Position numbers and translations under genes: made by a program
Origin: Raja brachyura
Lineage: Eukaryota
Direction of reading: 5' to 3'
DNA: 64,000 bases
NCBI GenBank assembly: GCA_963514005.1
Contig: OY740799.1
Location: 17,050,001-17,114,000, forward strand
Notes under the pieces: generated by a model
Seen by the model: only the letters and a program-made list of their open reading frames with translations
Told to the model about the DNA's origin: nothing
Databases searched by the model: none
In this document: positions 3,984-56,838 of the stretch, one piece after another
How positions within the stretch are numbered: the stretch's first letter is position 1
Layout of the letters: the number at the start of each line of letters is the position of its first letter

Positions 3984-4185
3984 CTACCGGAAGTCATCAG
4001 TACTGAACATTCCCTTAGCACGCCGCAGGATGGAGTCTTTAGAAGCATCATATGGGTGCTCCTTCGATGGGATCTCCAGCACAGCAGGAATCGATAATGT
4101 ATGTGCATCAATGACGTGACGAATCATCTCCGCAATGTATTGATTGATCAGAATTATCCCAATGTCATCACGATTCAAGAAACTT
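3984..4185 (-). CDS. ATP6V1F: V-type proton ATPase subunit F, coding exon 2
   Basis: Acceptor tttacag|A at 4185. Encodes [66 protein letters not shown]; 202 nt. Confidence 0.97.
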
Positions 4186-5689: not shown

Positions 5690-6245
5690 GGGTGACAATG
5701 ATCAGGGTCCCGATCCCGTCCCCCCGGGTCCCTCTTCCCTGGCAGCTGGTCCCGGGTCGCTGGTCCCCGGCCCGGTTCCCATCCATCAAGCGCAGCCGCC
5801 CTCACTTGAAAGTCTCCTCGATTTCCGCCACGCTCGTCTCTTTCTCCACCACCAGAAAGTTGGGCCTGCGGTTCTTGTTGAGCTCGCCTATGCCGCCGAG
5901 CAGGAATCCGGTGCAGGTGTCCTCGTCCCCCAGCACTGCGATCAGTTTGCCCCGGCCCGCCATCGCTCACGCCTGCGCAGTGCCCCTGGTCAGGCGGACC
6001 CCGGCCTCAGGCGACGTCATCCGTCAACTGCCCCAGTACTGAGCATGCGCGTGAAGCCACGCCCCTCGTTGCCTTTACCCGTGACGTCTGTGCCCCAGCA
6101 CTGAGCATGCGCAGAGAGCCACGCCCCCCCTTGTTACCGTTACCCGGGACGCCAGTGCCCCAGTGCCGAGCATGCGCAGTGAGCCCCGCGCCATCCGAGC
6201 AAGCCAGTGAACGAACGCACGCGGAGAGAACACACTCGACGTCCT
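5690..6245 (-). promoter_or_regulatory. CpG island / TATA-less promoter of ATP6V1F
   Basis: GC- and CpG-rich tract over exon 1 and upstream. Contains NRF1-like GAGCATGCGC x3, Sp/KLF GCCACGCCC x2 and CRE-like GACGTC motifs. Confidence 0.8.
5806..5963 (-). CDS. ATP6V1F: V-type proton ATPase subunit F, coding exon 1
   Basis: ATG at 5963-5961. Encodes [52 protein letters not shown]; donor AA|gtgag (phase 2). 158+202 = 360 nt = 119 aa plus stop. Confidence 0.97.
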
Positions 6246-34400: not shown

Positions 34401-37400
34401 AGAATTTAGATGAATGATGGTCTCAGTAAAAACACTGGAGTATTAATTGGCAGCCATTGTGCTCACGGCAAGAACTTTCACATCCTCCCCCTCCCCAGCA
34501 GAATGACAAAGCTTTAGAATGTTCTATTCCCAACAGCTGTGGATACAGATTCAAAATGGAACTTTGCACTCTGAAGGAATTGAGGATATGGGAATAAATC
34601 AGAAAAGGGAATAGCAATGGACATTCAGCAATAAACACTGAATGGTAGAACAATTTGAAAGGGCCACATGGCCTCTCAGTGCCCTTATTTTACACATCTT
34701 CATAAGAAGTCTTATGATTTTGCTGCAGAGGAGGCACATGGAGCAGGCCAGAGAGAGGCAATGTTGGAAGACTAGAGAAGAGCTCTGATCCTCGCTGGCC
34801 TTGGACTGGCCCAATACATCAGTTGCTGAACTGCTTCCGTTTGTCACTGGGACAAGGTATCCCTCGGTGCAAGGCTGGGCAGAACTGCTCACCTGGAATC
34901 GGGTGCCCCCCAAACGTTATGTTGACATCGTAGTCTCCAGGAGTGAAGGGGATGTACTCAACACTGCAACTGCCATCTTTGTTGTCCTTGCAGGACATTT
35001 TCGCCTCAGAGGGGCCCTCGATGGCCAGTCCCAGGCCTCCAGTGCCTGCACCCCTGAGCAGAGAGTGGAGGGAGGGGATAAAGGAGAGAGAGAGAAAGAG
35101 AGAATGAAAAGAGAAAAAAAGTAGAGAGGAAGATAGTCAGGCCAAGTTAAAGGTAAAGATGAGCATAGCTCAGGTTACAGGTTCAGATGTAATGTCCAAA
35201 ATCAGTAAACCAATTCATGGCATTTTGTTTGTTTCCACCCCCTCACAACCATCCCAAACAAGCTTCAAATTTTGGCTCAGTTGGGAAGTCCCCAATCCCA
35301 TGGCGCATTCTTAGAAATAGACATAAAATGCTGGAGTAACTCAGCAGGTCAGGCAGCATCTATGGAGAGAAGGAATGGGTGATGTTTCTGGTCGAGACCC
35401 TTCTTCAGACTGATCCTTAGAAATGATCAGTATCACAAGGGATCAGTATCACAGTGTTGCTCCAACCCACAGAGGGTAATTGCGGATCAGCAAAAGGAAG
35501 GTAATGTCACTTATTCCCTTCTGAAGGGAGATGTATAAAGAGGGTTAGTGCTTATTGGGATTGGTGCAGATGGAATGTCCTCAGGACATTGGTGTGTCCT
35601 CATGACACACAATCCAAGAATAGCCAATGAAAGCCAGGGCCAGTGGGCTTGGGGAAATGCAAACATGAGAAAATAATCCAAAGTATCTTTCATTTCTTTG
35701 AGAGATAATAGGAAAAACTCATTTTGGATATTCAATGGTTAGAGATGGCCGCAAGAAGGGACAGTCCACGTAGGAAACAGAAGCAATTAAATGTATCCCA
35801 GTGAAGGCCCAACTTTTATCCACTATTTAAGGTTGCACCTCACCTGGTTTCCACAGTGAACCTATTGGGTTTGTTCACCAGACCTCCTTCCAGACCTGGA
35901 CCATACGCCCGGACACGGCTAGGATCACAGCCCTCAGTGACTCCAACTCGGAATGGACTTTTGGGGATTGGGACATCATCATAGAGCACTTCAATCATAT
36001 GCATTCCTGAAAGAGAGAAAAAAAAAAATCATATACTTATTAAAAGTCTGATCTAGTACGTGTGTAGATGTGTGTGTATATGTGGTTGTCTTTACATCTT
36101 CGCAAAAACACCAAGCGGTAACGATAACATTTTTACATATTCTGATTGACATATTTCCCCTCTAGGCCGAGATCACCTTATCTAAACATTTTATGCTTTA
36201 TTTCTCAACTTATTACTGATTAAAGTTTAAAAAAATCTAAATACATTGAATTTAAAACGCCAGCTTCACCTGTGATGTCACAATGGCTCGGCTAGCAGTG
36301 ATCAGCCTCACTCAAGATTTCATCCTATATTTCTTGTTATTCACGATTAAAGCTTTCAACAAGCCAATTTTCACAAGATTTTTACTGTTAAAATCATTCC
36401 TGCCAGCTTCCAACATACTTTGATACAATGTTGCGACACAGGAACTTTTGCACACTCTGAACTTTTCACCTCACAGGAGGGGGAGGGCAAATTGCTATTG
36501 CAACACGCAGGTGCAATTGGATTTTTTTTTTAAGCCCACTGCTGAGGGAGGCTGGAATCTTACATTTGGGAACGGCTTGTGTTGGAGGACCACGCCTTCC
36601 GTGGGGGCTACGGGTAGAGAATGGGTGCGTTGGGGGAGCAGACCCAACGAATCTGCACTTGGTCTAGTATATATTACTAAAACTGTCATCTTGTTTGTGA
36701 TTCTGTCTGCGTGCGTGCTCATGTGCTCCCGGAACTATGCCAAAATGGCACATGATAGCTCCACAATCTTGTTCAGATTGATGGTATATTTTACAAGTTA
36801 TTCATATTTTCAAATTACAAAATCCAGTGTGAGAAAAAAAAAATCACTTGAAGTTGCAGTGGCAGTTAGCAGCTATGACATCACAATGGGATCTCATTTA
36901 CATAAACTGCCCAAGAGCAGTGCTTCACCCCACAATGGGTTCTCATTTACATTTTTTTAAAACAAAATTTAACTTCTCACTGTAGAAAATTCCAATTCCA
37001 ACTTGCTGCCCCAAAACATTGTAACGGGCAGGGAATTGAATTTATTTTTAAAGATTAAAAAGAGGGAGGGTGAAGAGGACGGGGAGGGAGTGCTGGGGGA
37101 CGAGGGAAAATGAGTCGCACCTGTGCAGTTGGGGGCTATGGGTGAGTGGTGGAATATTGCATTAGGGAAGTAGGTTGCGTTTTTGGGTTCAGGTGAGTGG
37201 TGGAATATGGAGTTGGGGAATGGGTTGCATTGGGGAAAACAGGCCTCCAGTGGGGGCTATGGGTGAGTGGTGGAATATTGCGTTGGGGGGGAACATGTTG
37301 CATTGGGGACCAGGCCTCCCGTGTAACAGGAACCCAACGGGTCCCACTTGGTCCAGTTAATTAAGCTATAAAAACATGCCCTCTTAGCAGGCAGTCAACA

Positions 37401-40400
37401 AAATGCTCCTTATCTCAAAACTGCCCAGAAACCAACATCACTTTCCCTAATACCCCCTAGATGTTACACATTATAATATACAACTAAGGGGCCTCTTGCT
37501 CACACCAAAGGAATGTATGATCCAGGGAAGCTTCAGCAACAGTCACTGTTGTAACAAAAGCTAAGAGCCCATCAACAGACAGAGGGGAATATGATCCCGT
37601 GAAAGGACTGTTTCACTTTAAGCCGTGATCACATCTAGGCAAATCATTTCCTCAACATTTCTCAAAGTTAAAAAAGATATTTCTCATCTTCACTTGGAAG
37701 AGAGCAGGGAATCTTGCAACACAAGGGAGGAAAGGTAGGGCAAGATCCTTTTATTAGCAATGAAAACATGAAACAACAAATGTAGGAGTCAGGGATCAGT
37801 CCCCAATATCAGTCTGCCTGGATGACAGAGACTGGGTATTCTTTTCTGCAAGTCCATTAACTTTCACCACAAATGCCCCACGTGCCTACAGGTTTGCAAA
37901 AGGCCGGTGGGGTTACTTCACCAGAAATGGAACTCAGAATGACTGGGAAACTAAGTTCAAGAAAATAGGCAATATGTAAAACTTCAAACAGATACGGCAA
38001 GCATCGCTCACCATCTTCATAGGCTGTGTACTCCACATGGTAGGTGCCATCAACATTGTCTTTGATGTAACTGTCAGTAATGGCTCCAGAAGGATTAACT
38101 ATACGAATCTTGATGTGGCTCCCACCAGTCTTGTTGATAGATCGACAGTCCACAGTAAATTCTGTGGTGACCTCCCGGAGTACCCCTGAAAATGAGAGTC
38201 AAAATGGGATTAAATCTTCTTTACCCCCACCACAGCCGTGATCCTGTTCTTCTGATCATTTCCACGACAGGTCCTCAATACCTACTAACAACCCCAGCAA
38301 TCCCCCCACACCCACAAATGACTTGATGTCATTGAATAGTTACAGACACTCCCCAAAGAGGATAGCTTTCCACCAAAAGACTCTCCCAACCTCAGAGACC
38401 AGCTCTCCATCTGGACCTTTCCCCCCCAGCCACTGGAAAATCTTGGAATCAATAAAATGAAACCAATTCTGCAAACAATTTAATTGCTTGCTTATTCCAT
38501 CACTTTGTCTCAAAAATAGCATTTTCCCAAATTTAGCTTCTACTGCAGGATCCACACATAGCAAGAGTAGGTGCGGGTGTAGATTGTCTTACCACGAGGC
38601 TCCACTCCTGGTCCAAACACCTTAACTCCTGCTGTGTCAATTGCTGGATCGACCCTGACACGAGCTGGGAACTTGGGTACGGCATGCCCACCGTACTTGA
38701 TGGTAATGGTGTACATCCCATGGAACGGTGGGATATAGGTGATGGTATAGGTGCCGTCGCTGTTATTCTGAATGTGAACCTCCGCCTTCACACCAGTCTC
38801 GGAGATGATCTCGATCGTCAGCTCAGCCTCCCCAGCCTTGGAACAATCCACAGTGAATGTTCCTGCCTCATCAACCTTGCCGCGCTCGAGCCCAGGTCCG
38901 CTGGCAGTGACCTTGCTCGGGTCAAAGACAGGCTTGATGTCCGCCTTGAAGGGGGAGCCAGGAATATGGGCTTCAGCAAACAGGATGTTGACTGTGTATT
39001 CACCTGGCTCAGTTGGAAGGTACGAGACGGAGCAGGAGCCATCACCATTATCTTGGCACTCAATTTTTGCTTCACAAGGACCTTCCACAGTCAATCCAAG
39101 ACCACCGGTGCCAGCACCCTTGGTATCAATGGCAAAGGGAGCTGCTTTTCCAACCACACCACCTTTGAGACCTGGCCCATAGGCCCGCACCTAAAATACA
39201 ATAAAAATGCCTCATTTAACTCCCTCAGACCCACGCAGTCATGTGTGGTCCATACAGAATGTCAAACTGCAATTGCTCTGACAGAACTATCATCTCTGGG
39301 AAGCTTTATTCAAATATTGCACATGCTCAGGACCCTCCACGGTGTCTTTACTGCCAATCGAGTATTTTTGGCCATGTGGTTAGGATCATTTGGACTCTTG
39401 TGTGTGGTTCTCGTCATTGCCGCATTACAGGAATAATGTGGAGGCTTTGGAGAGGGTGCAGAAGAGCATCACCCTGATGTGGCCTGGATCACAGAATATT
39501 CGTTTTATTAAGGACCAATTGAGCAATCATGCATCGCTTTAGCTGGAACAGAGGATGAAGACGAAAGTTTTAAAAGATAATTTGCAAGTCGCGTATTTAT
39601 AAAATATCTAGTGGTACAGAGATGGTAGAGGCTTGGAGCACATGGCCAGGAGTGGTGCTGGAACCACATACAACAACATTTAAGAGGCAGGGATATGAAT
39701 GGTCAGCGGATGGAGGGATATAGACCATGTCCAGGCCAACAGGATCAGTTTGAATTGGCATCATGGTGAGCAGAGATGTGGTGGGCTGAAGGGCCTGTTC
39801 CTATGCTACACTGTTCTAAATGCTACGACACAAGAAAAGCCATGAACTATAAATCAAGCTCTCACAAAGTGGAAAGTAATAATGATCTCTTTGTTTCTGT
39901 GATATTGACAGAGTCCGAATATTGGCCAGGACCTGCCTCTTTGGGACGGGAACACAGGAGAATTGCCGGGGGAGGGGGGTGTTGCAGAACAGAAAGAGCA
40001 TTATTAATTCTGTATCAGAATGAACAGAAAATTAGAGTCAATATGGTTGATAATTTCAGGGTTGGTGGGGTGGGAGCAGAAAACATTTTCAGTTCCACAA
40101 GCACACAGGATGTCCAACATTGAGCCTTCAGTGTTAGACAGAGCTCGTGCAATGCAGTGAGCCACTGCTGCATTGGTGTCCTCACCTTGGTGGGGTCAGG
40201 AGGCATGACTCCCTCCACAGTGAAGGGGCTTCCAGGAACTGGATGTCCATCGTAGCTAACGTCCACCTTGTATGGTCCCTCCTCAGGCGGCATGTACTTG
40301 ACCGAGTAAACATCGCTGGTAGGTCCTGTCTCCACCTTGCACGGGATGGGACGGCGGGATGGAGATGTGATCTTCACGTCAACCTTCCCCTGTCCCCCTG

Positions 40401-43400
40401 CACCTCGAGTATTGACACTGAATTCCTGATCCTTCCCCACATCAACTTCTGCAACACAAACACACAATATGAGGGTGTCTTTAGCAGAGTAGCATATCCT
40501 GCGGCAGTTTAAAAGATGAATTATTTTACAAAAGACCAAGCTGAACCACGGAATGCAACATCAAAGGGCAGATATCGGAAGCCTCTGTTCAGATACTGAA
40601 CTCCCAGCCCTCACTGGTGATCAGAGTTGTGGTAATGTTGCCAGTCAAAGAGGCACATTTGGAAGAAAAAAGCTGAAATTTTAAGATACATTTTTAGAAC
40701 TCTGGACCTCTGCAGCTGAAGAAATCACCAGCAACAGCGGAGCAATTAAAAGATGGAGAATTAGTTAGATGCCAGATTTCAGCGGGCCAGCAGATGACAG
40801 GCTGGAAGGGCAATGGTGATGCAAGGGACAAGGCACAATGGGTGAAAAGACAAAACACAAGGAATTACACACCAATACTTAGCAGAGAGTGAGCGGCAGG
40901 ACAGACCAACTGCAGTTTTTGATATATACAAAGCATGAGTGCTTACTGTGGAAGAGGGTCATGCTGAGATACCTTGGGCACATTCCTACCAGCCTCAACT
41001 GATACAAGCCAATAGTTTCTAAGCATGATGACAAAAGATATTCACCAAGTGTTTATGCTTACTGTTATTTAGTCCCTGAACCTTGACCTTGTTCAGGTCA
41101 AGAGGTGGAGCCACATTAACGGTGAATGGACTCTTCGGAACCTGGTCGCCTCCATAGGTCACCGTCACCATCATGTTGCCCTGCAACAAGACCACAGCCC
41201 AATGATTGTTACAAGAGACATCAGTAAACTTTTAGTCACTGCATGCAATGCCCAACCCCAAGCTCGTTTAACTAACCAAACCCAGACATTTGCCACAGAA
41301 GATAACCAACTACACCAATCGGTGCACAATTCCCCATTCCCAACACAATCCACGGGATACAACTTGCCACTGGATTCAAACACTGTCCCACTGGGTGCAA
41401 ATCCCAACCCCATCTCAACTTTCAGCCCATCATCATTCCCCCACCTGCTGCACAGCAGTGTATTTCACTGTGTAGGAGTAGTCATGGTTATCGATGATCT
41501 CAAAGTCACGAACAGCCTCTCCCTTCGTGGCTCCAGTGAACTGCACATCCAGTGTGGCTTTGCCAGCGCCTTTGGTGTTGACCGTGAAATGAGTGGGTTT
41601 CCCGACCTCGACACCTGTAAACAACATACATGGTTTATTCAGAATTCAGTACCGATCCATAAACTCAGACATCTGCAACCAATACCCACCCCATGTCTCA
41701 CACTTATCCCACTGCTTTTATCAATATACCCACACAAACCTGTATCCATGACACCAGCCCCACTCCCAATTATGCCACACCCAAAAGTGAGGGTTTGTAC
41801 ATTAACACAGGTCTTAAGCACTGGGCTCAGTCTGTACATGATGGTCAGGTTTAGAATTAGACATCGAGGCCTCTTGCCCATTGAACCTGCACTGTCACTG
41901 ACCAAATGGTTTTGGATGATATGGGTTTGAGAATTAAATTTCTTACAATTCAGTGTGGGAGATGTTATTTACTGGTAAGTCCAGGATTGTCCTGGAGGCT
42001 TGGTGACCCACTAAATGATCACACCTCACACAGTCGATCAGCTTTGCCTCACCAGTCCGGCTCAGTCCGGGACCTTCAGCCTTGACCTTTCCAGCGTCGT
42101 GGGATGGCTCCACTTTAATGCAGAATGGGCTGATGGGAATCTCCTGTAAATAAATTGGACAGACTATGATTAGGGTAGATACAAATGCCACGGATGGTAG
42201 TTTTTTTTGGGGAGGGGTTGGTTGGTGAATAAAAATGCATGCGCCAAAACAGGGACTACGGAGATTAAAAAGGGCAATGCACTGCATTGTTCTATTAAAT
42301 ACAGTAAATGCTGTATTTCAGACAATACTTTGACAATTAATTAACCAGGCTCTGCCACCCTCTATCCATGCCACCCATGCCTCTCAAAAGGAACATACCC
42401 ATGAGGAGCAGTGGCCTACTTATTCCCTTGATGCTGCCCTGCCATTCATAGACCAATCATTCATCATTTATGTCCAATTAGATTGCACCCTTAAGTCCAC
42501 AGTCCCTCCTACCCACTAATCTATCACACTTCCACTTCTCCAACCCTCCGAGACACTATGTTTCCCCAGCACCCCCTCGGAAAAGACCCCTCCTTTCTAA
42601 ACAGTGACCTCCTATTTCTAGATTCTCCTCCTAAAGAAATCACATCACACCCCACAAGGAGCAAAATGTCCAACTGTTATTTAAACTAGGGAATTAACGA
42701 GGGTAGACAAAAATGCTGGAGCAACTCAGCGGGTGAGGCAGCATCTATGGAGCGAAGGAATAGGTGACATTTTGGGTCGAGACTCTTCTTCAGAATTAAC
42801 GGGTGCCTTTTGTCGGCAATGGTCACCGTAATTACACGGCAAGTGTAATCCCATGTGCAGTAATGAGCAAAATGAACACAACCTTAATAATGTGGGCTCC
42901 AGTTACAAGTTGCAAGTGTCTAGGGGAGTAGCTGATAGGTCCCCGCACAGCCTCTGAGCAACCATCATGCTCCCCCAACCCTATGCAGTGTTGGGCTCAA
43001 GTTAAATGCATACACCCATACACAAGGCAACATTCTTACTCCACCATGCCAAACTGCTTGAAGAATTTACTCTTTTTACAAATCTATTTGTTCAATAAGC
43101 CAGAACAAGCTCTCACAAGCACTAAATCTGCTCCATTTTACAAGGTCCTGGAGATAACTAATCACACCTTATTCAGAGCTGAACGACATTCAGCATGATC
43201 TGCAAGTTAGTTTTAGATCTGCAAGCTCAGAACCTTGGGTTTTATCCTGAAGAGGCCTGGAATTGTGCTGCAGCTGGATGAGGTCTGGATACACCCCACT
43301 CTGGGGACTACACCTCAATGCCGTAGTGCAAATTTACCAGAATAATAATAACGTACTCCTGTGGATTAAGGCAAGATGGTACCTGGACTAGAGTTTCATG

Positions 43401-46400
43401 GAGTGGTGTGATTCAGGTATTAAAGTCAGAAAGGATTGATTTGACAGATGGAGAGAAATCTCTTCTGAAGACGGGAGGGGGAGGGGTGGCAGGAATCTTA
43501 AACTTCAAACTAGGGAGTCCAAGGGAGATGACAGGAAAGCAGTCTTCATCCTGGTTTGTGGAAGTCTGCAACAGTCCCACAAAAAGCAAGAAGTTGGAGA
43601 TTTCAGAGTTGTGCTGATAAATCTTGGTGGAAATGGTGGTAGGTAAACCATCAGGGCAAGACTGGATCAAATTCAGGAGGTTCTCCAGCTACTGCACAAC
43701 CCTTCAAGATTTACCAACAACCTAGTAAAGAGTGCTTATTTTAACTAATCACGTAATTAATTGCGCAATCATCCACCTTCATCTTCTACCTGACACACAA
43801 TCCTCAATCACGAGTCTTTACCCGTCTATAGAACAAATACCAGACTGATTCCTCACCTCACTCCACCCACAGATTCTTCCCGTTTACCCTCAATACCAGG
43901 TAGAGCAGACATCGAGAATCACAGGTTTTAATGAACCGAGAAGGACAAACAGCTTGCATCTCCTTTGGGAGATGCAATCGCCAACCCATAGTCCTCATAG
44001 GGCAAGCAAGGAACTCCCAGCAATGGTGCAACAGAGTCCAAGCAGCATTATGTACCTGGTCAGCAAACAGCACCATGATGGTGTAGCGCCCAGCAGCCGG
44101 CGGAGTGTACTTCACTGTGAAAGTGTCATTGTCATTCTTGATGATGTCGAAATCGATGTCAGCCTCAGCTGGTCCCACAACCCCTGGCGCACACTTGATG
44201 CCAATGCTCACATCACCTGTTGGAGAAGAGGTCACAGGTCAACCCAGCATTCACCCAAGCCTATATTATGGTTTGTAATATTGAGGACCATGCTGTTATA
44301 CATCTACAATAATAAACCATATTTATCGGCATCATCTCAGAATTAACAGCTTACAAGAGGTCTGGATCTAAAGAAAGGTCTCGACCCAAAATGTCAGTCT
44401 GAAGAAAGTGCTTGACCAAAATGTCACCTATTCAGTTTCTCCAGAGATGCTTCCCGACTAGTTGATCCAGCACTTTGTGAGCTTATGTATTAAACACCAT
44501 CTGCAGTTCTTTGTTTCTATCCTCCATTACTTGTTCTTCAAATCCCTTTGCATTCCTTTGCCATACAAAGCATCCCATCCAGATGTATCACAGCTTGATT
44601 TGGCAACTACTCTGCTTAAAACCACAAATTGCATAGTTGTAGATGCAGCCCAGTTTATTAAAAAACCATCCTCAACCCACACCACCACACCAAAACAGAC
44701 TCCAACCACAAGTCACATTGCCTAGGGAAAGCAGTAAACATACAGACCATTCACACCCCAACCACTCTCTCCGCTCTCCCCTCATTGGGCAGAAGAAGCA
44801 AAAGGAAGACCAATTACCACCAGATTCATGAAAAGCTTATTTCCCCACTATTATCAGATTCTTGATCAGACCCCTCATTTGCTAGGCATAGATTCCTGAC
44901 CTTCCAATCCACCTCACTGCAACCCCTGCACTTTTTTGTATATTGACACTTTCTCTGCAGTTGCAACACAACATTCTAACAGTTTCCTTTCTCATCTGCG
45001 TTACCTGTTGTACTCATGTGGAGAGCGATTTGTCCATAGTACACACAAAACAAGGTTTTTCACCGTTTCACAGTAACCACAACAATAATGAACCAATACC
45101 TAGCCTTCTTCCATGCTTCGACTGTTTCTGATACCTATGACGTAGCAATTTCTCCATAACATCATCCCTTATTAACTGGTTCTTACCCCACCCCCCCAAA
45201 AAAAACGTCAGCATTTAGTTTGTAGTTGTTGGGTTTATCCCGCTACTCTGAAAAACAACGGCAGGACCTGGGTGGAGGATACCCCAGGGACTCACCTTGA
45301 CCAGCTTCACTGCAGTCCACTGTGAAGTAAGTGGGTTCATTGGCCTTTAGTCCAGTTTTTTCTACACCTGGTCCATACACCTTCACCTTCTGTGGATGAC
45401 ACCCTTCACCCACAGATACCTGCGGCACATGCAAAATGCAAAAGTTACCACACAGTTAACTCGGAGCATATTCCACTGCAATGCAAAGGCTGGAAAGTGA
45501 GAAGCACGGGACCAGTAGCGGAGTGTTTAACAAATCAGTCCGTTGCAGACCCAGTTAAACTCAATATGCAGAACCAAGTCCATCCCCACCATTTACCTCC
45601 CTTTGTGCTGCTCATTGACTCACCACTCCCCTTCGTACCCATCACTATCACACAGGCTCATCCCATTCCCTCTCCTGCTCGTCACTGCACCCACCAATTT
45701 TCATCTTATTGGCCCAATCCCACTGATTTAATTGACCATCATCACCCATGTGGACGTCAAGACCAGTCACCTGGTTTCTAGATCGTGCCTCCATCTCTAT
45801 GGCCTCCCTTTGGTGCGATGGACCCTTCATACCGCCACCTGCCCCTGCACACCCTCCCTCTCCCCACTTACTCTGAAGGGACTGTTCGGGACATTGACCG
45901 AGCCCCAGCTGATGATGATCGTGTGTTTGATGGGCTTCTGTGGCACATACACGCAGAAGAATGTGTTGTCCCGGTTATCTTTGATCTGGATGTCGATAGG
46001 AACACCCTCTGCATCCTTGAGAGAAACAAACAGAAATCAGGGCAAGCTATTGCTGAGAATCCTAAAACACTCGAGTAAAAACTCATGAAACCTATTCAAA
46101 TAGAAAATTCCCACTACTTTTCCAACATGCTGACAGGTGCTTCAGTTTGCAGATATTGATCAGGAAGTCCACTCCCACATCTCTGCCCACCTCCCTGACC
46201 ACCACTGGCATTCACCAGGACGTCACGTCATTACCTGTGCATAGATCTTGAGTTCACCCTTGCCAGCTGCCCGAGCATCAATAGTAAACTCAGCCGGTTT
46301 GTTCACAATGCAGCCAGTTGGTTCCAGACCCGGGCCAAAAGCCTTTACCTGAGAGCAAGATTGGCAAAACATTATTAATAGTTACGTCACCCACCAAAAA

Positions 46401-49400
46401 TCCATGTTAAAAGGAAAACAGGAACTAATCCACATGGTTAAAGTGACTACAGATGCTGGAATCTGGAGCAAAATAACACACTCATCAGGAAGCATCCGGA
46501 AGGAAGTGGATAGTTGACAGGACGCATGTTTTCTATCCTAAAAGCTAACTGTCCTTTGGTCTCCAAGGATGCTGCTTAACCCCAAGTTCCTCCAGCAGTT
46601 TGTATTTTGCAACCATGGGTTTTGTCAGCTAGATGTGGTATTCTCATACAATAAGCATTCAAACCAAGGAAAACACCTCTAACTGTCACCTTCAAGTCCT
46701 GAGCATATTATCCATCTTGACAATTCAGTGCCCAACTGAGGACCTACAAGTGCTAGTGCAGGGAATTGTAGCACTAAGGATACACAGCCACAGCCTACAG
46801 TTAGCTCTATACAACAAGGCCCTGTTGGTCATCTTGGGTGAAGCATTATAATCTACTGCTGGCAGAGGACACAGGATCCCCAGGTTTAAAGTTATGCACG
46901 AGACACACCCAGATTGGCAGATATTTCTCTTCACTTTTTGGGCAAAATTTTACCAAATCCAATCTTCTCATTCGAGTTTATGCAAATTTCCCTCTTGAAT
47001 TTAACAGTGGTCATGTTTGTGGGATGTTTGACCTCGTCCACAGCCAACAGGTTGAGCTTGATTATGTCAAAATATTTCATTCACTCATTTTTGAATTGTT
47101 TGTAAACTTCAAAACGTGCTCCCTGCAGCAAATTCCAAAGTCTCAAGAGAGTAATCACACCACCGATCCAGTCGATCCCCAGGCCCCTGCCCGTGCCACA
47201 CAATTTCTCTACACTCACCTTCTCTGGGAAGCTTTCATTGTTTGCCGGCAGGATGTGAGCCATGAAGGGACTATCTTTAATATCTTCATCATCACAAATC
47301 ACATGCACTGCATAATCACCAGGCTCAGTGGGCCAGTATCTCACATCACACGACCCGTCTCCTTTATCATCACACTCGATCTTGGCCTGTGAGGGACCTT
47401 CAATGGAGAAACCTGGACAAAGAATGATACAACCAATCGTTGTCAGAGATAAGAGGCCACAAGCTGTTAGACATTCACACAAACTAAATGTCAATCTCAA
47501 GAAGCAACTACAGCACATTCCTTTGTTTTTTGCATAAAAATCCAAAACATTTGGAATTAAATCTTTGAAATTTTTTACAAAATTATTTAAAATAAAACTG
47601 AAACCAAATGCAGAACTGATTATTTTTGGAACAATGGAAGCCAGCTTTGAGCTGACTTCGTTCCAAAAGAGTTTCCCTAATTATGGCAAAAAAACGCATA
47701 CTTAAATTCTGGAAAAACGCTCCCACAACAACGGTAAAAATGTGGATTTCAAATGTGTCCGAAATATTACACCTCAAAGATATGAGATTCATCCTAGCAG
47801 GCAAATCAGACCAATTCCAAAAAATTTGGTCTCCATTTATCGACTTATTACAAGCATAGGGTGCAACATAACTTTGAAAATAAATGGTTTCAGGACCTGG
47901 TGAGGGGTGTGTAAAGATACGAAGTAGGTACACGTGTTCCTCGTTTCGACGGGTTCTTCATTTTCACGCACTTACTATCTTATCTAACTTTCTCTATTTT
48001 TCTTCTTCTTAAAGTTTAAAACAAGAAGTGGTCCATGAAATGTATTATGTTATTTTTGGCTTGTACTACTGTAATGTACATTACTTCTAATAAAAATAAA
48101 TTTAAAAAAAAAAGACATTCACACAAACAAGACACGCACGGCAAGACAGGCAAAGCACAGAAAACTCATCCTGATGTATTTCTAAGTCTCATTATTGCAC
48201 TCGATTGAATGCGGATTGAACAGGGAGGAAATGCAGCAAATATATTGGTTTCAAACCAGTGTTGACCTTAAAAGGGAAGCCTCCCCAGTATGTCAGGAAG
48301 CGACAACACTTACCTAAAGTCCCAACTTCAGTCCCAATGGCCTCCACTACAAAATCTGCTGACTTGCCCACAACACCAGTCTCCAGTCCGGGTCCCCAGG
48401 CTCGCACCTTCTGGGCACCAGCTTCAGGTCCAACCTGCACCTCGAAGGGGCTGGAGGGCAACACATCAATCAGTGAATGCACACCCAACACAACATCTCC
48501 TGGTTACTGCATTAGCATTAGTACAAAAGATTGCTGAAATTATACTGAAAACACAAACATGAAATCTGTCCTAGTGTTATGCCGAACATTTATTTGTGTT
48601 GTCAAATACTTTGAAACTGAAAGATTGACTCGGGGTCCCAGAAGAAGACAGACAAACAGAGAGGGACCAGGGATGGGGAGAGGCGTTTCTGTGGACGTTA
48701 AGCAAAAATGAAACATTGTTCATTTGATATCCGAATTAAATGAACCACATTTGGTTAAGTATGACTCACCTTCTTGGAATAGCATAACCGCCCCAGGTGA
48801 TGGTCACCACATATTTGCCTCCAATCATCGGATGATATTCACATTCATAGATACCCTCGCCAATGTCACGAACCTTCACGGGTTCATCTGTGCCTTCTGG
48901 AAAGAAAGATACAAGGCCAGTGAGAGGCTTTGGCCAATTGCTGCATTGCCCACATGTGTCCCAATTCTTTTGCCTCAACCCTAGTGCAATGCAAATCATT
49001 CACCAAGACAGTGACTCGGCTTACAATCCAAGGACAAAAGCAAAATGCACAGGCGAGGTATGGAGCAAAATAAAGAGACTGTCCACAGCAGATTCCGGAA
49101 CCAACCCAAAGTGAAAACAGGGAACACTTATTCCATCACTTACCACACACCCTCATACCCCAACCACCTTCTTCCACAACAAATGCCAGGAGACTCACGT
49201 CTCCACCACCAAACAATACAATGACCCTGAAGTTCCAATGTCAAAAGAGCCTGCTAAGATGCCCAGTCCCTACAAGCCAACTTACTGGGTCCTTTGATGA
49301 CAACCTTCAGTTCCCCCGTGCCAGCTCCTTTGGTGAAGACTTTGAAGTCGGTCACTTCCTTGACTCGCACCCCTTTGGGCTGCAGACCTCTCCCCGAGGC

Positions 49401-52400
49401 TCGACACGCATTGGGATTGCATGCTGCAAGAAACACGCCAGTCAGGTTAATGTCAACCCATCAAATGCACAGAATGCCCACCCAGAGCCTACAGTCCACA
49501 GTCAAATCACAGTAACCACATCTACCAGCATTCCAGAGACATGAGGAGTCAAACCACCTGCTGGCTCAGCAAGCGAATAAACCAGCCGTGTGTGCTCCAA
49601 GACTGTCCCGCAGACAACACACACTAACCTCAGAGGGATATCAAGACACCCACTCAGTACCCAGAACACTGGTAATACTAGTCAGCAAGGCTTGATGATC
49701 AATGGACCAGGAGCGAGAGAGAGGGCCCGACCTCTCCACGTACAGATGACAAATCACCTACCTGTCTGCAAAAGGAAAGCGCGAACCGAGCAAGATTTTA
49801 ATCACGTCTCCATCAAACAAAAAGAGCAACCATAAACAGTGGGAGGAAAAGTAATTTTGGAAAAGTATACCCAAAGTTAACCAGTAACCTACAACCCATT
49901 CCACTCAAGGCCTGGCAGGAGCAGAGCCATTCAGCAGAATACGGCAGCCAACGTGCCCACCTAGAACCACAGCACAGCAGCTGATGACCAAGTTAGTAAC
50001 GACCAGGAACAGGCAGCACTAACCACCCTCTACCCTCAGAGGACTTACACTGACTCAGAGCCAGTGACATCCAGGGCCTGAACTGGCCTCTGAGCCAGTA
50101 CCCTCATGCACAGAGCAGGCAAAACCACCATCCCCCAAGCAGCCCCTTGGACAGACACGGTGTTTACAGATATCATGACCACGCATACAGACAAGCCCAA
50201 CCAGCGTCCCCTTGTACAGACACAAGCAGAGGCAGCCCCTCAGTCTAGGCCAATACTAACGTGCTCGTTTGGGTTTGGGAGGAGGGGGCGGTGCTTTCTT
50301 CGCCTTGTCTGCCGGCGGGGTGCGGATGGACTGAGGAACGATCATAATTGGAGCTGGTGTAGCAGCCTGGGCCAAAGGGGGGGATCCTGAGGTCAGTCCA
50401 AGCACAGAGGAAGAGCATCATGAGGAAGAGAAGGAGAGGTTAAAAGGTGTGAATGGCAAAATCCAGGCTCTTTCCTGCAGTGCAGTGGGATGTGGCAACA
50501 TGGAGCTCCCTCCAAGCTGACAAATCCGCAAAACAGTCCCATTCTCAGAGTGGCCCAAATGCCACCCAATCTCAGTTTTACTGCAACACCTTCACAGCCC
50601 TGGCTCTCAAAATCACCAGCATGGTCTCAACCTCCAAATGTCCACCAACACAGTGGACCCAGCTCCAGGCAGCCATGGTCCAAGCATTCTTGCAGCTTCA
50701 CTATTGTCCCATGCAAAACAGCCCAAACCTAACTTTCCTTATTACACAGCCATTCGCGTGCTAATTCAACAACTACGCACCAGCCATTTCTAACTTTCAG
50801 GACCATCACTTTTTGTTAATCTTGTGTCCCCCCACAACCAGGGGAGCATCTGCAAAGGTTTGATTTAAAAATGAGAGCCTGAGAAAGCAAGATCAATCAC
50901 TCAGGCCAGATTCTTCTATCTTACCAAAACCCACAAAGACAAGCTATTCCACAAAAGAAAGGCGGTTTTATTTTCCTTAATATACACGAGTAACAGCTTC
51001 CCAATGAGATGCATCTGTTCATCACTAAAGTAATTTGTTGGCTGTTCTTGGCAGGCTTCATCGGACAAGACAACAGTCCAAGTTAACTGGTCAACTCTTG
51101 GAGAATAAAAACATATGCTCTCTCATTCTGCAGTCCTCAACCTTGCCCAAGTGCCAAGTGCTTAATAGATAATGTCTGGAAATTAAGCTAGTCAATTGAC
51201 ATGGAAGCATTTTCACGTCTGTTTGGCCAAATCTCCAACCGGGCACAAGTAATTAATTTTTAACTCCAGTCCCCACCATCTCCATAATCATATAATGAAT
51301 GTTTACATGGCTCAATTATTCTAGGAAATTAACACCTTATAAATTGAATCTGTATGGATAGCAAAGCAAGATTCCTTCCCAGAATACTATATCTTAAATC
51401 ATTTGGCTTGGTAACAGTGCTGAAGAATCATGCAATTAGTGTCTAACCATAGAGACAAAACTGATACCACAGGATCGGATCACCAATGGAACATTTCAAT
51501 TAAATTATTGAACTGCTCAGGGCAACAACACTGTCTATTCCCAGTCATATAATAACTTCAGGTTCCATGCTAGAAGCCACCCTCATTCCCGAGAATGTAA
51601 AATGCTTGACAGCACTGTTAGAAAACCAGCGCTCTCATCAGGTGTTCTGGTTGATATTTTAACTCCTTCAGCGTCACATACAAAAAAAATATTAGTTATG
51701 CTGTGCACAATTGGCGACCATGACTCTTTTTGAAATAGTGACTTCACTTGTTGCAAAACATTTGAGCACCCCAGTGTTATGAAAGGGGGCTTTAGAAATG
51801 AAGGTTTTGGGGGGTTTTTTGTTGGGTTTTTTTTTTAAAACACACAAGTGCATACACAGACAGCTTGTGAGAGTTGTCGCATAGACCCACACGATCCATT
51901 CAAAAGATGATCTTTGCGCAAAAGAGAAATAATAAATACACAATTAATGGTATTTCTGACATTGATACAAGGATCAAATCCAATGACAGTTTTCAAAGCG
52001 TCAGCCTTCAATTGCTCCCATCCTCCCTCACAGCCCACCTGCGCTCCTGATTTCTCGCTACTTTCACAAATCCTACAATTCATAAGCTCCATCATGCCCA
52101 GGATACAAACCCCCTCCAACAAAAACGCACTCTCCCTGCCTCACCTCAGATCATCATTCTCACTCCCCTCTGTTCCCAAACATTCACCCTCCTTCACTCT
52201 CCCTGCATTATGTGATCTTCAACCCATCCCCATCTCTTAATCTCTCCTTTGGTTTCTTACCCCATTGTCACCCTTTGCTTGCTCGGCTCTTAGGGAGAGA
52301 AAGAGTAGAGGATGGGGGATGAATGAAAGGCAAAGGCTCCTTGCACAAAGAGCCCACATGTAGTGTGTGGACCTTACCTTCAGAGATGTTCACAGTGAAG

Positions 52401-55400
52401 GGGCTTTTGGGTATTGGCGTTCCAGCAAAAGTAACATGGACGGTGTGAGGACCTTCAAGCAGAGGTCTGTATGTGCAGCGGAGAACATTGTCTCCTTTAT
52501 CCTCCAGAATCACCTCCACCGTATCCCGCCGTCCCTGGGGATCAACAATGACCACTCCAACATCTCCTGACCCAGCACCTGAGGGGAAGGAAGAAAAAAG
52601 AGCTGTCATCAGTACAGTGACAGCAACAGCACACTGCCATCCATGCAGAGGAAGGAATTCATCCTTCACAAGTCAACATTAAAATGCAGTGCAATCAGTG
52701 GAGAGTGCCTAGATACATTTGGTCACTCAACACAACACCTCTCCAGCCTCAACCTTTTCATCACAAAGGGGATACTAAACACAAGAACACAACACCCTGG
52801 TGAAACAGTCCAGATCGCTGCAGAATTAAGGGAGGCTTTAGAAGAGAAGTACAGATCCAAGAACTGGGCCCTCAGGTCTCTTTGTTTGCAACATCACTTT
52901 TCAATTCTGACAGAGAACATTTATTCCAAAAAGTTGGTTTTTAATTTACTTTCAGTTTTCAAATGTCATTTAATTGACTTTGTCTTCATTCTGAATAAAA
53001 ACTTCAAATGTCATCTGAGAAATTCCAAAGATGGCCACCCCACCTCTCCTAAGCTACAAACCTCTCTTCCCTCCCACCTCACCACAATTTCCAGTGGAGA
53101 TCCATACATCACTTTGTTTCTCACCTGCCGTGTAAATGTCAAAGTACGTTGGCTTGTTGGCCACATTCCCATTCAGCTCCAGACCAGGACCTTGAGCAGT
53201 CACCTTGTTGGAATCACCCAGAGCCATACCAATCTGGACTTTGAAAGGGCTTTTGTCAATTTGCTGTCCAGCAAATAAAACTGTTACCTGGAAGCAAACA
53301 CAAAGGTAACAGTATTAAAGCAAAATGCCAGTGGCTCCAATCTCCCTCCAAAAACTTCAAATTCTCCACATAGCCGTGTGCACCATTTTCATGCCGTGCA
53401 CAAATCAGCGAATGCAATCTGACTTGAGTGGTTGTGTTGTCAGATTTGGATGATTAAGTGGCAATTTGATAGAGCTTGTGATAATTCAGGAAGTCAGCGA
53501 GGTGTTTGGAAACTATTTCCTCTGTAAACCCTCCCAGCAAACCCCAAAACAAAAACATTTGGATCTGGGTGCAAAATAGATTGTCAAAGACAAGATTGAT
53601 AGTTTCCCATCCCCAGTTATAATCCAAGAACAGGGAGCAGCAATGAGATGCAGATCAACCATTCGAGCAACATAACTATTTCCTTAGGATCCCGTGACAA
53701 AGGGTGGGGGCAATCGCACTGCTCATTTCACCGAATAGCTTCCGACATGGAGTTCCATTCACTGCCCCATCTGGTGATGAAAACATGGAAGGAACACTAG
53801 ATCTATGGGTCAATGCACAAGCAAACCTACGAATGGTGTATTTTACAGACAGTGCAAAATGATGGGACCTGTGAAGATGGAGCCAAAGCTTATTCTGAAT
53901 GAACTGAAGTCTTTGGAATGATCAAAGACTTACCTTATGAAGGCCAGCAACTTTGGGTATGTAGGAAACAGAGTATGTGCGGTTCTTGTCATTGTTTGCA
54001 GTCACGCGTGCCTATACAAAGAAAACAAAATGGTCATTCTATACTGCAACTGGTTACTCCCACACCAGCCCATTGAACAAAACAGGCAGCAGAAGATTCA
54101 GCTCACACAAGAAGTGCATACATTATAATTCCAACCCAATGATGCTTGCTCCCTCTGGAACACAACAGTCTGTATCAATGGTGCTCAAGTGGAGATAGCT
54201 GCAGGTTCTAGGTGTAAATATCACCAGCAATCTATCCTAGTCCAACCACATGAATGGTATGGATAGGAAAGCACACCAAAACCTCGACTTACTCTACAGA
54301 AATTCAGCAACCCCCGAATGACTCATCAATTTCTATAAAGACGCCATAGAAAATATCATCTTGGGATTATGGCAACCTATTTGCCAAGCACACAAGAATT
54401 TGTAAAGAGTTACAAATGCAAATTGATGAACAGCTTGTTCCTCACTGTGATCACATGGGAGGGCCACTTGAATGGGCCTCCAATGTGCTCGGGATAAATT
54501 CCAAACTTTCAAATCCACATCATTGCAACCCAGACATTTTTAAAACCTGTACTTTCTATGTAGATACCACACTGTATTCTGCTCTTTTTCACTACCTGAT
54601 GTACTGTATGATTTGCTTGGACACCACTTTCTCGGATTGAATTCCTTGGATTTCTCTTGCTTGGTACATGTGGCAATAATAAGTGTGCCACAAGTAGAGA
54701 TGAGCATCAATGAAGATCTTCTAAACAATATTTATATGCTGGAACTAATAACAAAGAAAGCATGGCCCATTCCCACACACTCAGTACCTCTTCAGTGTGG
54801 CCTTCAGGATCCTCCACAAAGACCAGGACCTCTCCAAGACCAGCATTAATCGTCTCCACGGTGAACTCTGCTGGCTTCAGGACTACATTACCCTGTGGCT
54901 CGATACCTAGATGCAAGCACAAGGGACATTTAAATATATCACAATAACTTTGCTACCAGGTCAAAGGACATCATCATCCCTCAAGATATTCACAAAGTGT
55001 TGGAGTAACTCAGCAGGTCAGGCGGCATCCCTGGAGACAAAGGATGGGTGACTTTTCAAGTCGTATCCCTTCTTCAGACTGGATGACTCATCATCCCTCA
55101 AACCAGGTTTAAGGCCATGGTCAATCTGACACACCAGTAAGCATTACCCCAGGTCAGAGAGCTTCCACAGAACCATCATCAACTGTTGCTCCTTAACCTA
55201 GCTGATAGGAGACAGCGAACAGAAAACTATCCCTTATTCTAGGTTAAAGAAAGTATTCTCAGACTAAGACCACATCTTATCCTTGGAAACATGATATGTA
55301 CTGGATAATATGTACTGGATAGTCAGTGGGCCAAGTTTTGGGCAACACATGAAGGGATTGTCCTTACCTGGCCCATAAGCTCGAGCTTTCTTGGGGTTGA

Positions 55401-56838
55401 GTTTTGTCCTGAGGGGAGCACCAGGCTTGAGCTTCGCCTTTGGGAACTGGGAGAGGTAGGTCATCACCGAGTGCTCATCAACGTTGGGGTCCACAATCTC
55501 CTCAGGGGCAATCACCTGCAGAGTGGACAAAGGAGGTCAGGGGTGAGCGCTGGGAAAGGGTTAAATGTGACACACACATGGATAAGCAAGGACGAGGAGA
55601 AATGTGAGGATCTGAGTAAGCATCAGCGAGATCGGGATTCCAAAAGCTCGTGCACAGTGGGGCCTAGCGTTGATTGAGAAGAGGGAGAGAGTCCAAGGAC
55701 ATTATTTCACCAGATTCTGTTGTATCTGTGCAAATGATGGGGGATGACAATGGAGACACTCACCTGAGGAACTCCCAGCCAATCATCAGCTTGTTGCATG
55801 GCCTCACGGGCATTCCCCACGGGTTGGTTCGGGTCCCATTCCTGCCAGTCAGGGCACAGACCTGTGGGCACAATGAACACCTTTCCAACAAAGGGACAAT
55901 GAAGTATGGAATCCCAGCATCAGGCAGGGAGAAAACCCATGCAAACAAAAAAAATCTACAAACTTAGCTCTGGGTAGCTTTATAATTGCTGAGGATCTCT
56001 AATGCAGAACAACTTTGGACCGGAAACTTGGAAGCTGCAATTAACAGTGAGCTTTTATTGAAGTCGATCACTTGTAGATTCATTGATCAGCAATCGCCCC
56101 AACTACCAAGTGCATGCTGAATCAGCGCCCATGCTCCTGTTCATGCCTAATCATGTAGCAGGAGCTGAGACGGTGCCAGCCCTGCTCACATCTGGTTCCG
56201 TTTAGCTTTAATTGTATACAGCTCTGTTAAGCATTTCCAACATTGCCAATTCAGCATTTTCAAATCCACCCCTGTGCTATGCAAAATCTTGGAGTGCCCC
56301 CTTCCTCAATCAGCACCACCATCACAGCACTGCTACAATCACACAGACGGTGAGGGTCACCTTCATCAACTGGTTCATTCTGGAAATAGTGACCCCCTGT
56401 GCAGCTACACATCTGATAACCTCATGGCCCAATTGATACTGTCAATCTTGGCAGCTACCTCAAACATGTAATACAACTACCCCTCCACTCAAAACAAACC
56501 TTGCAGCAATTCACTCGGGTTTAAACCCAATCCTTCTCCTTCCCCTCTCATTTATCCCACTGCACTCTCCCACACTGCCGAGCTCTTACCTGGTGCACAG
56601 TTGTCCACCAATGCACCCAGTGCCTTGCCGTCCTGCCAATCCCGGTGAAAGTTGGTGATAGGCAGCTGTGGGATCTTGTTCTGGATCCATCCCAACAATC
56701 TCTGCTTGGGAGTCTGCTTCTTAACGTCTTCATCATCCTCATCCTCCCACATAGGCATGGAGATGGAGTAATGGAGGATAAGGGTCCAGATCAGTCCCAA
56801 GATGAGCTTCAGGTTCCCATCCACAATAGCCTTACTAT
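13460..56838 (-). CDS. FLNC: Filamin C, exons 2-48 (5'-partial; exon 1 outside window): CH actin-binding domains plus 24 Ig-like repeats
   Basis: Exons traced with GT-AG boundaries and continuous frame: e2 56590-56838, e3 55764-55861, e4 55368-55515, e5 54788-54906, e6 53934-54011, e7 53125-53287, e8 52378-52578, e9 49286-49423, e10 48770-48896, e11 48314-48450, e12 47219-47412, e13 46235-46348, e14 45872-46015, e15 45296-45419, e16 44056-44216, e17 42053-42143, e18 41445-41614, e19 41063-41180, e20 40186-40448, e21 38593-39190, e22 38012-38185, e23 35844-36006, e24 34893-35053, e25 34025-34192, e26 33578-33701, e27 32852-33008, e28 32010-32199, e29 31357-31380, e30 30487-30734, e31 28180-28275, e32 26711-26810, e33 26469-26609, e34 25879-26007, e35 25077-25250, e36 23607-23768, e37 22216-22419, e38 21755-21907, e39 21444-21566, e40 18562-18801, e41 18187-18456, e42 17374-17511, e43 17170-17285, e44 16611-16743, e45 14891-15067, e46 14222-14440, e47 13864-14067, e48 13460-13647 (...[11 protein letters not shown]). 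Paralog identity comes from the FLNC-specific Ig20 insertion exon and adjacency to ATP6V1F. Confidence 0.97.
15390..15530 (+). mobile_element. CR1/HER1 3' tail fragment
   Basis: gtcaagggttatggggagaagg...tcagccatgaatgaatggcg...gggccaaatggcct; the same tail as other copies in the window. Confidence 0.7.
18562..18801 (-). CDS. FLNC: FLNC exon 40: FLNC-specific ~80-aa insertion in Ig repeat 20
   Basis: [57 protein letters not shown]...; 240 nt, phase 1-1. Confidence 0.95.
18860..19830 (+). mobile_element. Highly decayed CR1 fragment with a nested short palindromic repeat (~19245-19410)
   Basis: Residual similarity to the CR1 RT C-terminus and 3' tail seen at 62700-63535. Confidence 0.55.
19014..19086. 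repeat. 26-bp tandem repeat, ~2.8 copies
   Basis: atgtagccttcagtt(a/c)(t/a)aaaatatga repeated. Confidence 0.85.
23085..23440 (-). mobile_element. CR1 LINE 3' fragment
   Basis: Minus ORF ...[21 protein letters not shown]... and a 3' tail ending gggccgaagggcctgtttct. Confidence 0.7.
24095..24697 (+). mobile_element. Rex1/Babar-like LINE 3' fragment
   Basis: Degenerate [33 protein letters not shown]...[23 protein letters not shown]; ends gtgacaataaactaaactcaaactcaa. Confidence 0.7.
28180..28275 (-). CDS. FLNC: FLNC exon 31: hinge-1 cassette exon
   Basis: 96 nt, phase 0-0, [32 protein letters not shown]; acceptor catag, donor gtataa. Not in the supplied ORF track. Confidence 0.9.
29290..29560 (+). 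mobile_element. CR1 RT C-terminal fragment
   Basis: Reads [17 protein letters not shown] / [20 protein letters not shown] across a frameshift, homologous to 63000-63150. Confidence 0.7.
31357..31380 (-). CDS. FLNC: FLNC exon 29: 24-nt micro-exon (V)SIGGHGL(G)
   Basis: ttctaactgactgctcttcccccacag|TGTCCATCGGTGGCCATGGACTAG|gtgagt; this is the known filamin VSIGGHGL micro-exon. Confidence 0.92.
   Translation of the reverse strand, partial: CPSVAMD
35318..35413 (-). repeat. Dispersed short repeat (Penelope-associated type) with hammerhead-like core; related copies at ~7832-7935, 10270-10406, 19245-19410, 25450-25600, 42703-42793, 44365-44520, 54991-55081
   Basis: Shared consensus tgctggagtaactcagcaggtcaggcagcatctctggagagaaggaatgggtgacgtttcgggtcgagacccttcttcagac. 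Confidence 0.85.
36029..36667 (+). mobile_element. Non-autonomous Helitron, copy 1
   Basis: Starts A|TC (36029) and ends CTAG|T (36667). Sub-terminal hairpin gcagacccaacgaatctgc lies ~7 nt before CTAG. No TSD or TIR. Confidence 0.7.
36668..37356 (+). mobile_element. Non-autonomous Helitron, copy 2 (head-to-tail with copy 1)
   Basis: Similar 5' end (tatatattactaaaa), hairpin ggaacccaacgggtccc, then acttggtccag|t. Internal triplication of ggtgagtggtggaatat. Confidence 0.65.
39400..39820 (+). mobile_element. Decayed CR1 3' fragment
   Basis: ttggagagggtgcagaagag... and tail tgggctgaagggcctgttcctatgct. Confidence 0.6.
44525..45100 (+). mobile_element. Decayed Rex1/Babar-like LINE fragment
   Basis: Similar to 24110-24690 (gatgtatcacagcttgatttgg...gttgtagatgcagcccag). 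Confidence 0.55.
47485..48112 (+). mobile_element. 5'-truncated L1-clade LINE with poly(A) tail and 16-bp TSD
   Basis: TSD agacattcacacaaac at 47469-47484 and 48113-48128. ORF2 C-terminal remnant (C..H..C; [10 protein letters not shown]...[12 protein letters not shown]), then AATAAA and an A-tail at 48089-48112. Confidence 0.85.
50261..50386 (-). CDS. FLNC: Putative extra proline-rich cassette exon of FLNC between exons 8 and 9
   Basis: ctgacctcag|GATCC...GAGCAC|gttagt; 126 nt, phase 1-1 matching its neighbours. Stop-free: [42 protein letters not shown](P). Confidence 0.75.
54180..54680 (+). mobile_element. Decayed Rex1/Babar-like LINE fragment
   Basis: ttctaggtgtaaatatcacc...aaagcacaccaaaacctc... 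ending cttggtacatgtggcaataataa, like the other Rex1 tails. Confidence 0.5.

Follow-up and report, generated by a model that had tools for sequence, protein, structure and literature searches.

The filamin C gene (FLNC) of the skate was found to carry an exon of 126 nt, here termed exon 8a, between its exons 8 and 9. It is almost certainly a real cassette exon, and both forms, with and without 8a, are common in RNA. By protein comparison, its place, length and C-terminal sequence are conserved across the jawed vertebrates. The explanation which we consider probable is a frame-preserving jawed-vertebrate FLNC exon whose product would be a disordered linker of 42 residues, with a PxxxPKP end that would act as a splice-switchable SH3 docking site, most likely for nebulin or nebulette. 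FLNC is a major gene of myopathy and cardiomyopathy, and a second, presumably regulated FLNC exon whose insert occurs from chimaera to lizards suggests that a switch in rod 1 has been overlooked.

The whole stretch of DNA that was analyzed (the window) has a length of 64,000 nucleotides. The RefSeq FLNC protein of Leucoraja (P0018) was mapped to the window, resulting in a total of 48 exon segments and 47 GT-AG introns on the minus strand. Since 2649 of the 2672 aligned residues (99.1%) are identical to P0018, the host intron could be assigned as intron 8 of skate FLNC. The solved structure of the filamin A domains 3-5 (4M9P) starts at the residue right after the insert, before CNPNACRA, which confirms a position between the Ig repeats 2 and 3. 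Both assignments agree with the sequence-only reading that was followed up here. The features of the exon and its surroundings are as follows:

13460..56838, minus strand: skate FLNC, exons 2-48 and exon 8a, exon 1 not mapped (P0018 mapping)
52378..52578, minus strand: exon 8, end of Ig2, upstream partner of 8a (RNA joints, mapping)
50440 (A of TTAAC) and 50421 (A of CTCAT), minus strand: branch candidates (sequence)
50387..50445, minus strand: acceptor region with AG, pyrimidine tract and branch candidates (sequence, site matrix)
50261..50386, minus strand: cassette exon 8a, 126 nt, phase 1-1, net gain of 42 aa between Ig2 and Ig3 (sequence, RNA joints, RefSeq isoforms)
50313..50342, minus strand: second conserved block in 8a with a near-invariant Thr-Pro (column counts, 86 distinct inserts)
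50271..50291, minus strand: PPPPPKP codons, fitting PxxxPKP (nebulin/nebulette SH3 ligand type) and class II PxxPxK (motif match, definition from the available part of PMC3810769)
50255..50260, minus strand: weak donor CAC/GTTAGT (site matrix; used in RNA)
49955..50254, minus strand: candidate downstream splicing enhancers, ten YGCY, one TGCATG and one ACTAAC (motif counts)
49286..49423, minus strand: exon 9, start of Ig3, downstream partner of 8a (RNA joints, mapping)

Exon 8a is flanked by AG and GTTAGT, its length is a multiple of three and no stop codon is present in the filamin frame, as had been read from the sequence for a 126-nt segment of phase 1-1. The 43-letter peptide quoted at that time was also correct; its G and P are encoded by the codons that span the two junctions; they replace one Ala, which results in the net gain of 42 residues. 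Intron 8 contains 17 stop-free AG..GT segments of 99-150 nt with a length divisible by three, and the sequence alone is therefore no proof of an exon.

A search with the exon and its flanks matched nine sequencing runs, none of which is on record as RNA; four of the nine were examined. X1 (one related species, one study) as well as X2 and X3 (a second related species, a second study) were judged to be spliced from the exact skipping of GT-AG introns in their contigs. X6 covers the stretch in one piece without any of the joints between exons 8, 8a and 9 and behaves as DNA. In the contigs of X1, X2 and X3, all three joints were identified at the predicted bases with GT-AG ends. These are exon 8 to 8a (52378>50386) and 8a to exon 9 (50261>49423), the two junctions whose presence had been proposed as a check, and exon 8 to exon 9. 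The contig depth was 59.9, 40.9 and 86.4 for the inclusion joint and 53.3, 37.7 and 55.2 for the skip joint exon 8 to exon 9 (X1, X2 and X3, respectively); it is a rough guide only, and an inclusion of 'about half' is not a measured level. With inclusion and skipping joints in three runs with spliced contigs and the frame kept, the optional in-frame exon proposed in the sequence-only reading was borne out. For the exon of the second species two variants are shown, one silent and one replacing an Ala of the variable N-terminal region by Val, and three further differences occur beyond these.

The exon had been called hidden, which is not the case, since the RefSeq annotation contains 8a for numerous vertebrates, including the little skate. 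The accompanying guess that fish flnc models carry similar inserts was right, as seen from the RefSeq fish proteins. The RefSeq/Gnomon isoforms of Leucoraja erinacea (XP_055509199.1), Stegostoma (XP_048409865.1), Danio rerio (XP_009298480.1) and Anolis carolinensis (XP_062839468.1) share the gene, the junction, the phase and the sequence family; they are automatic models. The Leucoraja insert differs from that of the window in three residues. Of the 70 members of the elasmobranch cluster 40 were read; among the 15 listed, the insert is present in nine and absent from six, and both forms are annotated in four species (Stegostoma, Chiloscyllium punctatum, Leucoraja and Hemitrygon).

A protein search with the peptide only (proteins of up to 2000 aa) resulted in one shark fragment, and longer queries reached full-length FLNC. 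The best 120 of 1217 matches were surveyed, a ranking which favours insert-bearing proteins, and cluster members were added. An insert of 18-64 aa at the Ig2/Ig3 junction was found in 161 of 209 proteins; 45 are without it and three were unusable. The carriers comprise Callorhinchus, sharks, rays, bichir, sturgeon, paddlefish, gar and teleosts as well as lungfish, frogs, salamanders, caecilians, lizards and snakes. The conservation in other vertebrates, which had been named as a further check, could thus be traced by protein searches in homologous inserts from chimaera to squamates.

No insert was found for mammals, birds, turtles, crocodilians or the coelacanth among the proteins surveyed (best 120 of 1217 matches and profile search), and three bird fragments spanning the Ig2/Ig3 junction are without insert. 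The profile search against 50% representatives resulted in 134 matches with no insert-bearing mammal or bird protein or recognisable FLNA or FLNB, no further lineage and no convincing match outside the filamins; absence from such representatives is weak evidence, since isoforms collapse into clusters. Shortened inserts of 18-36 aa were found in a set of teleost proteins (P0095, P0099, P0109, P0112, P0114, P0119, P0124, P0127, P0128, P0130-P0132 and P0135). These FLNC proteins likely represent the other gene duplicate, and their inserts are mostly without PxxxPK.

An unrelated acidic insert of 83 residues was observed at the Ig2/Ig3 junction of the amphioxus filamin (P0212, Branchiostoma lanceolatum, CAH1264976.1). 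This junction may have taken inserts more than once.

The approximate consensus of the C-terminal two thirds, determined from 86 distinct inserts of 38-44 aa, begins with (V/I)QI(V/I) and ends with (K/R)xPPPTPPKP(R/K)(R/K)PT. Three prolines are invariant in these inserts, and the residue following the proline run is a K in 84 and an R in 2 of them. The Arg was observed in both caecilian inserts (P0025, P0151), where it replaces the otherwise fixed Lys of the motif. In the second conserved block, a P was found in all 86 sequences, a Q in 83, a T in 80 and a P in 82 and 83 sequences, respectively.

When the skate was compared with 44 rows of bony vertebrates, the identity was 65% over the last 30 residues of the insert and only 16% over the first 13. 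The corresponding values are 69% for hinge 1 (exon 31; 19 rows) and 75% and 89% for the flanking Ig segments. Hinge 1 was therefore rejected as a 'neutral' control, and since it is as conserved as the 8a core, conservation alone cannot separate a docking site from a spacer. Hinge 1 (window 28180-28275, minus strand) is present in 19 of the 44 bony-vertebrate rows, and the Ig20 insertion (exon 40, window 18562-18801, minus strand) in only 29 of the 44, which indicates that database isoforms skip exon 40 too. Exon 29 is a micro-exon of 24 nt (window 31357-31380, minus strand) coding for about 8 residues, and length differences of 8 residues among the database FLNC isoforms may stem from it.

No domain was assigned to the insert by Pfam. 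In an AlphaFold2 model of the shark fragment P0001, calculated with an alignment of 52 rows, the pLDDT of residues 270-307 was below 50 without secondary structure, compared to an average of ~70-92 for the flanking Ig domains. The insert is predicted to be a disordered linker between folded Ig domains, which matches the flexible segment that had been suggested between the Ig repeats. A possible docking of the insert onto Ig2 or Ig3 as a beta strand was also discarded, since the model shows no such strand. The proline-rich motif lies within the region predicted to be disordered, as is expected for an SH3 ligand.

According to the available part of PMC3810769, the SH3 ligands of nebulin and nebulette have the consensus PPxxxPKP with the minimal motif PxxxPK, and PxxxPKP is their Xin-type form. 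The XIRP2 peptide PPPTLPKPKLPKH, which was crystallised with the nebulette SH3 domain, contains a Leu at the normally invariant proline position (PMC3810769). The motifs were counted in 87 distinct inserts of 38-45 aa and compared to shuffled sequences. PxxxPK could be identified in 84 inserts (shuffle expectation 25.9), PxxxPKP in 79 (8.6) and PPxxxPKP in 69 (2.7), whereas the values were 81 (43.7) for class II PxxPxK/R and 80 (43.8) for class I; the insert rows are related, so that the shuffle counts overstate the support. PPxPxKP was found in 70 and PPPT(P/L)PKP in 56 of the 87 inserts. The PPPPPKP of the skate fits PxxxPK as well as PxxxPKP, and the class II pattern occurs twice in the skate insert. 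Neither this insert nor any of the other listed elasmobranch inserts contains the full PPxxxPKP.

The class II pattern pointed out in the sequence-only reading was thus confirmed for the skate and most other inserts, but it is lost in the six distinct squamate inserts, which account for all six failures. All six keep PxxxPK, and the loss of the class II pattern was probably one evolutionary event. Five of the squamate inserts read PPPTLPKP, the eight residues with which the XIRP2 peptide begins according to the available part of PMC3810769. WW docking, the other function suggested at that time, did not hold up for the canonical group I ligand PPxY, which was found in 0 of 86 inserts. PPLP was found in 2, an EVH1-type motif in 1 and TPP in 84 of these 86.

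In mouse, a cryptic Flnc exon 8a of 63 nt located in frame between exons 8 and 9 is described in the available part of PMC10770608; it is located at chr6:29,441,974-29,442,036 (NC_000072.6). Its inclusion is ~10% in wild-type gastrocnemius and <1% in the HSA-LR model of myotonic dystrophy (DM1), and the junction peptide VAPPCNPNACR was detected in the wild type only, showing that the exon is translated in normal muscle (PMC10770608). The authors, who deal with mammals only in this part, state that 8a is conserved in mammals and shorter in primates. The exons of mouse and skate share the intron, the frame and the Pro before CNPNACR, and splicing in muscle is documented for the mouse exon. The distance to exon 9 is ~845 nt in mouse and 837 nt in skate. 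They differ in length (63 nt compared to 126 nt) and in inclusion (~10% compared to roughly half of the contig depth in the skate relatives).

The same intron and frame make orthology likely, and the 63-nt exon of mouse is probably a shortened orthologue of the long 8a, a shortening which the short teleost inserts parallel. The long form places the mouse exon that disappears in the myotonic dystrophy model in an evolutionary context. In the available source, four exon-derived mouse residues (VAPP) are given, which differ from the usual insert end KPRRPT, and the mouse exon may lack the PxxxPK motif. KVAPP occurs inside frog inserts.

With matrices derived from the gene's own sites, the donor of 8a was found to be the second weakest of the 47 FLNC donors and the acceptor the eighth weakest of 47 (leave-one-out matrix). 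The ctgac previously regarded as branch-like is too close to serve as a branch point, since its A (50393) is located only 7 nt from the exon and branch points need a larger spacing from the AG. A branch point is more plausible at TTAAC (−54) or CTCAT (−35), which lie within the pyrimidine tract or upstream of it. The 300 nt downstream of 8a contain ten YGCY, a TGCATG (50105-50110) and an ACTAAC (49992-49997), which we take to be the motifs of MBNL, RBFOX and QKI, respectively. As many YGCY were found in 1 of 34 other introns, and a single TGCATG and a single ACTAAC in 2 of 34 each, whereas the comparison of the YGCY count with dinucleotide shuffles resulted in a p of 0.13. The case for these enhancer motifs is weak, being suggestive compared to other introns but not compared to shuffles. 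With its weak donor, the inclusion of 8a would depend on downstream enhancers in muscle, and a dependence on MBNL would fit the result of the mouse DM1 model.

Six read-through proteins (P0216, P0239, P0247, P0251, P0343 and P0352) end at a Ser right after the insert, and three (P0233, P0237 and P0241) continue past it as Ser-Gln-Tyr. From these residues, donors of the type GT-T.. and GT-CA. were derived at the protein level. Fish, snakes and a frog-like sequence appear to have kept a weak donor with a pyrimidine at position +3. In the skate, a TAG overlaps the donor of 8a and would be read as a stop in frame whenever this donor is bypassed.

The weak donor and the 17 comparable open segments of intron 8 could be taken as signs of splicing noise or of a chance open segment. 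This reading is already refuted by the RNA joints together with the conservation of the insert from chimaera to lizards, and about half of the contig depth, as a rough guide, includes 8a; its probability is negligible. Another possibility is an additional role of 8a as a decay switch or as an alternative terminus, where a missed donor would lead to the in-frame stop and either to a short actin-binding fragment or to transcript decay, as for the FLNA poison exon. The TAG overlapping the donor is in accordance with this, and the shared end residue of the six read-through proteins suggests a conserved stop. However, a stop within a GTTAG donor requires no extra explanation and spliced 8a keeps the frame. 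No contig of X1-X3 runs past the donor into the intron (contigs drop rare forms), the depth of the joint between 8a and exon 9 equals the exon depth, and the downstream intron is without AATAAA and contains one ATTAAA. A decay switch is thus considered very improbable.

The role of the insert could also be purely mechanical. As a third hinge, rich in proline and without specific partner, it would allow the actin-binding domain and Ig1-2 to move independently of Ig3-5, described as a compact unit in the available part of PMC7216277. This would be consistent with the predicted disorder (AlphaFold2), the length of 38-45 aa held in most lineages, the equal conservation of hinge 1 and the survival of the shortened teleost and mouse forms, mostly without motif. 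The conservation within the exon is uneven, however (16% compared to 65%), and the fixed K/R after the proline run (84 + 2 of 86) is not needed by a spacer, making such a hinge unlikely. SH3 ligand motifs are degenerate, and the binding of another SH3 domain or proline-reading partner, for example of the cortactin-like, CAP/ponsin or BIN1 type, or a switch in which the phosphorylated Thr-Pro is recognized by a phospho-specific WW domain would agree with the high counts of PPxPxKP (70 of 87), class II (81 of 87), class I (80 of 87) and TPP (84 of 86). It is nevertheless judged to be rather unlikely, as class I, class II and PPxPxKP all fail in the squamates, where PxxxPK persists, and as PPxY, PPLP and EVH1-type motifs are absent or rare (0, 2 and 1 of 86, respectively).

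The preferred explanation is therefore SH3 docking by the PxxxPKP end. This conserved end within a disordered linker is a candidate SH3 ligand that would be switched by splicing. If 8a is included, the actin-binding end of filamin C would be anchored to SH3 proteins located at Z-discs or at sites of repair. Docking to an SH3 domain as such is a putative function, considered fairly likely from the motifs. Against it stand the inserts of skate and sharks, which fit PxxxPKP but not the full PPxxxPKP, and most of the shortened teleost inserts (18-36 aa), which are without motif. The PxxxPK kept in the squamates despite the loss of class II and the PPPTLPKP match favour an SH3 domain of the nebulin family. 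Nebulin or nebulette in particular is proposed tentatively as the putative partner, its chance being below even.

A more far-reaching form of the docking explanation, which is possible but doubtful, is an ancient splice-switchable nebulin/nebulette SH3 dock near the actin-binding end that would have existed since the first jawed vertebrates, with the mammalian 8a as a shortened remnant of low inclusion. If this is true, filamin C would be linked directly to the thin-filament ruler in myofibril assembly and repair.

Compared to the XIRP2-type ligands of nebulin and nebulette, the skate insert shares PxxxPKP and the squamate inserts the exact PPPTLPKP, and these ligands and filamin C are all proteins of Z-discs or remodelling sites. 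The skate insert is without the first Pro of the ligand consensus, and the filamin C insert was compared by motif alone. Hinge 1 (exon 31) and the Ig20 insertion (exon 40) are likewise optional or FLNC-specific and add flexibility or a partner site, but their position and sequence are other than those of 8a (available parts of PMC7216277 and PMC7318287). In the same parts, these FLNC reviews name hinge-1 as the sole splice variant. The poison exon N of FLNA is a regulated extra filamin exon, as 8a presumably is too, but it brings a stop and decay (available parts of PMC8652244 and PMC13542418), whereas 8a brings neither stop nor frameshift upon inclusion and the frame is intact through both of its joints. 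The FLNA poison exon was described to be repressed by PTBP1 (PMC13542418, PMC8652244), and a Flnc cassette exon stimulated by PTBP1 is mentioned in the available part of PMC5716086, the exon being unnamed there. A position of the FLNA poison exon in the homologous intron, on which the earlier idea of an old hotspot of alternative splicing was based, was found neither in the available parts of the two FLNA sources nor by literature search.

Exon 8a is already known from the automatic RefSeq annotation, and its short mouse counterpart is published (PMC10770608, available part). The long, motif-bearing form across jawed vertebrates, its likely identity with the mouse exon and the nebulin/nebulette match were not found in print, nor was an account of the function, conservation or motif of the long exon, in a search with subscription journals largely outside its coverage. 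Two candidate sources were rejected, as the glioblastoma preprint 10.1101/2024.10.05.616792 concerns the hinge exon only and the 'exon 8a' of PMC13478325 belongs to Clcn1 (both according to their available parts). The motif match turns a 'function unknown' into an SH3 idea that can be tested cheaply.

Downstream of FLNC, two ORF pieces resembling subunit F of the V-ATPase were observed at about 3987-5966 of the window on the minus strand. They presumably represent ATP6V1F, the neighbour of human FLNC.
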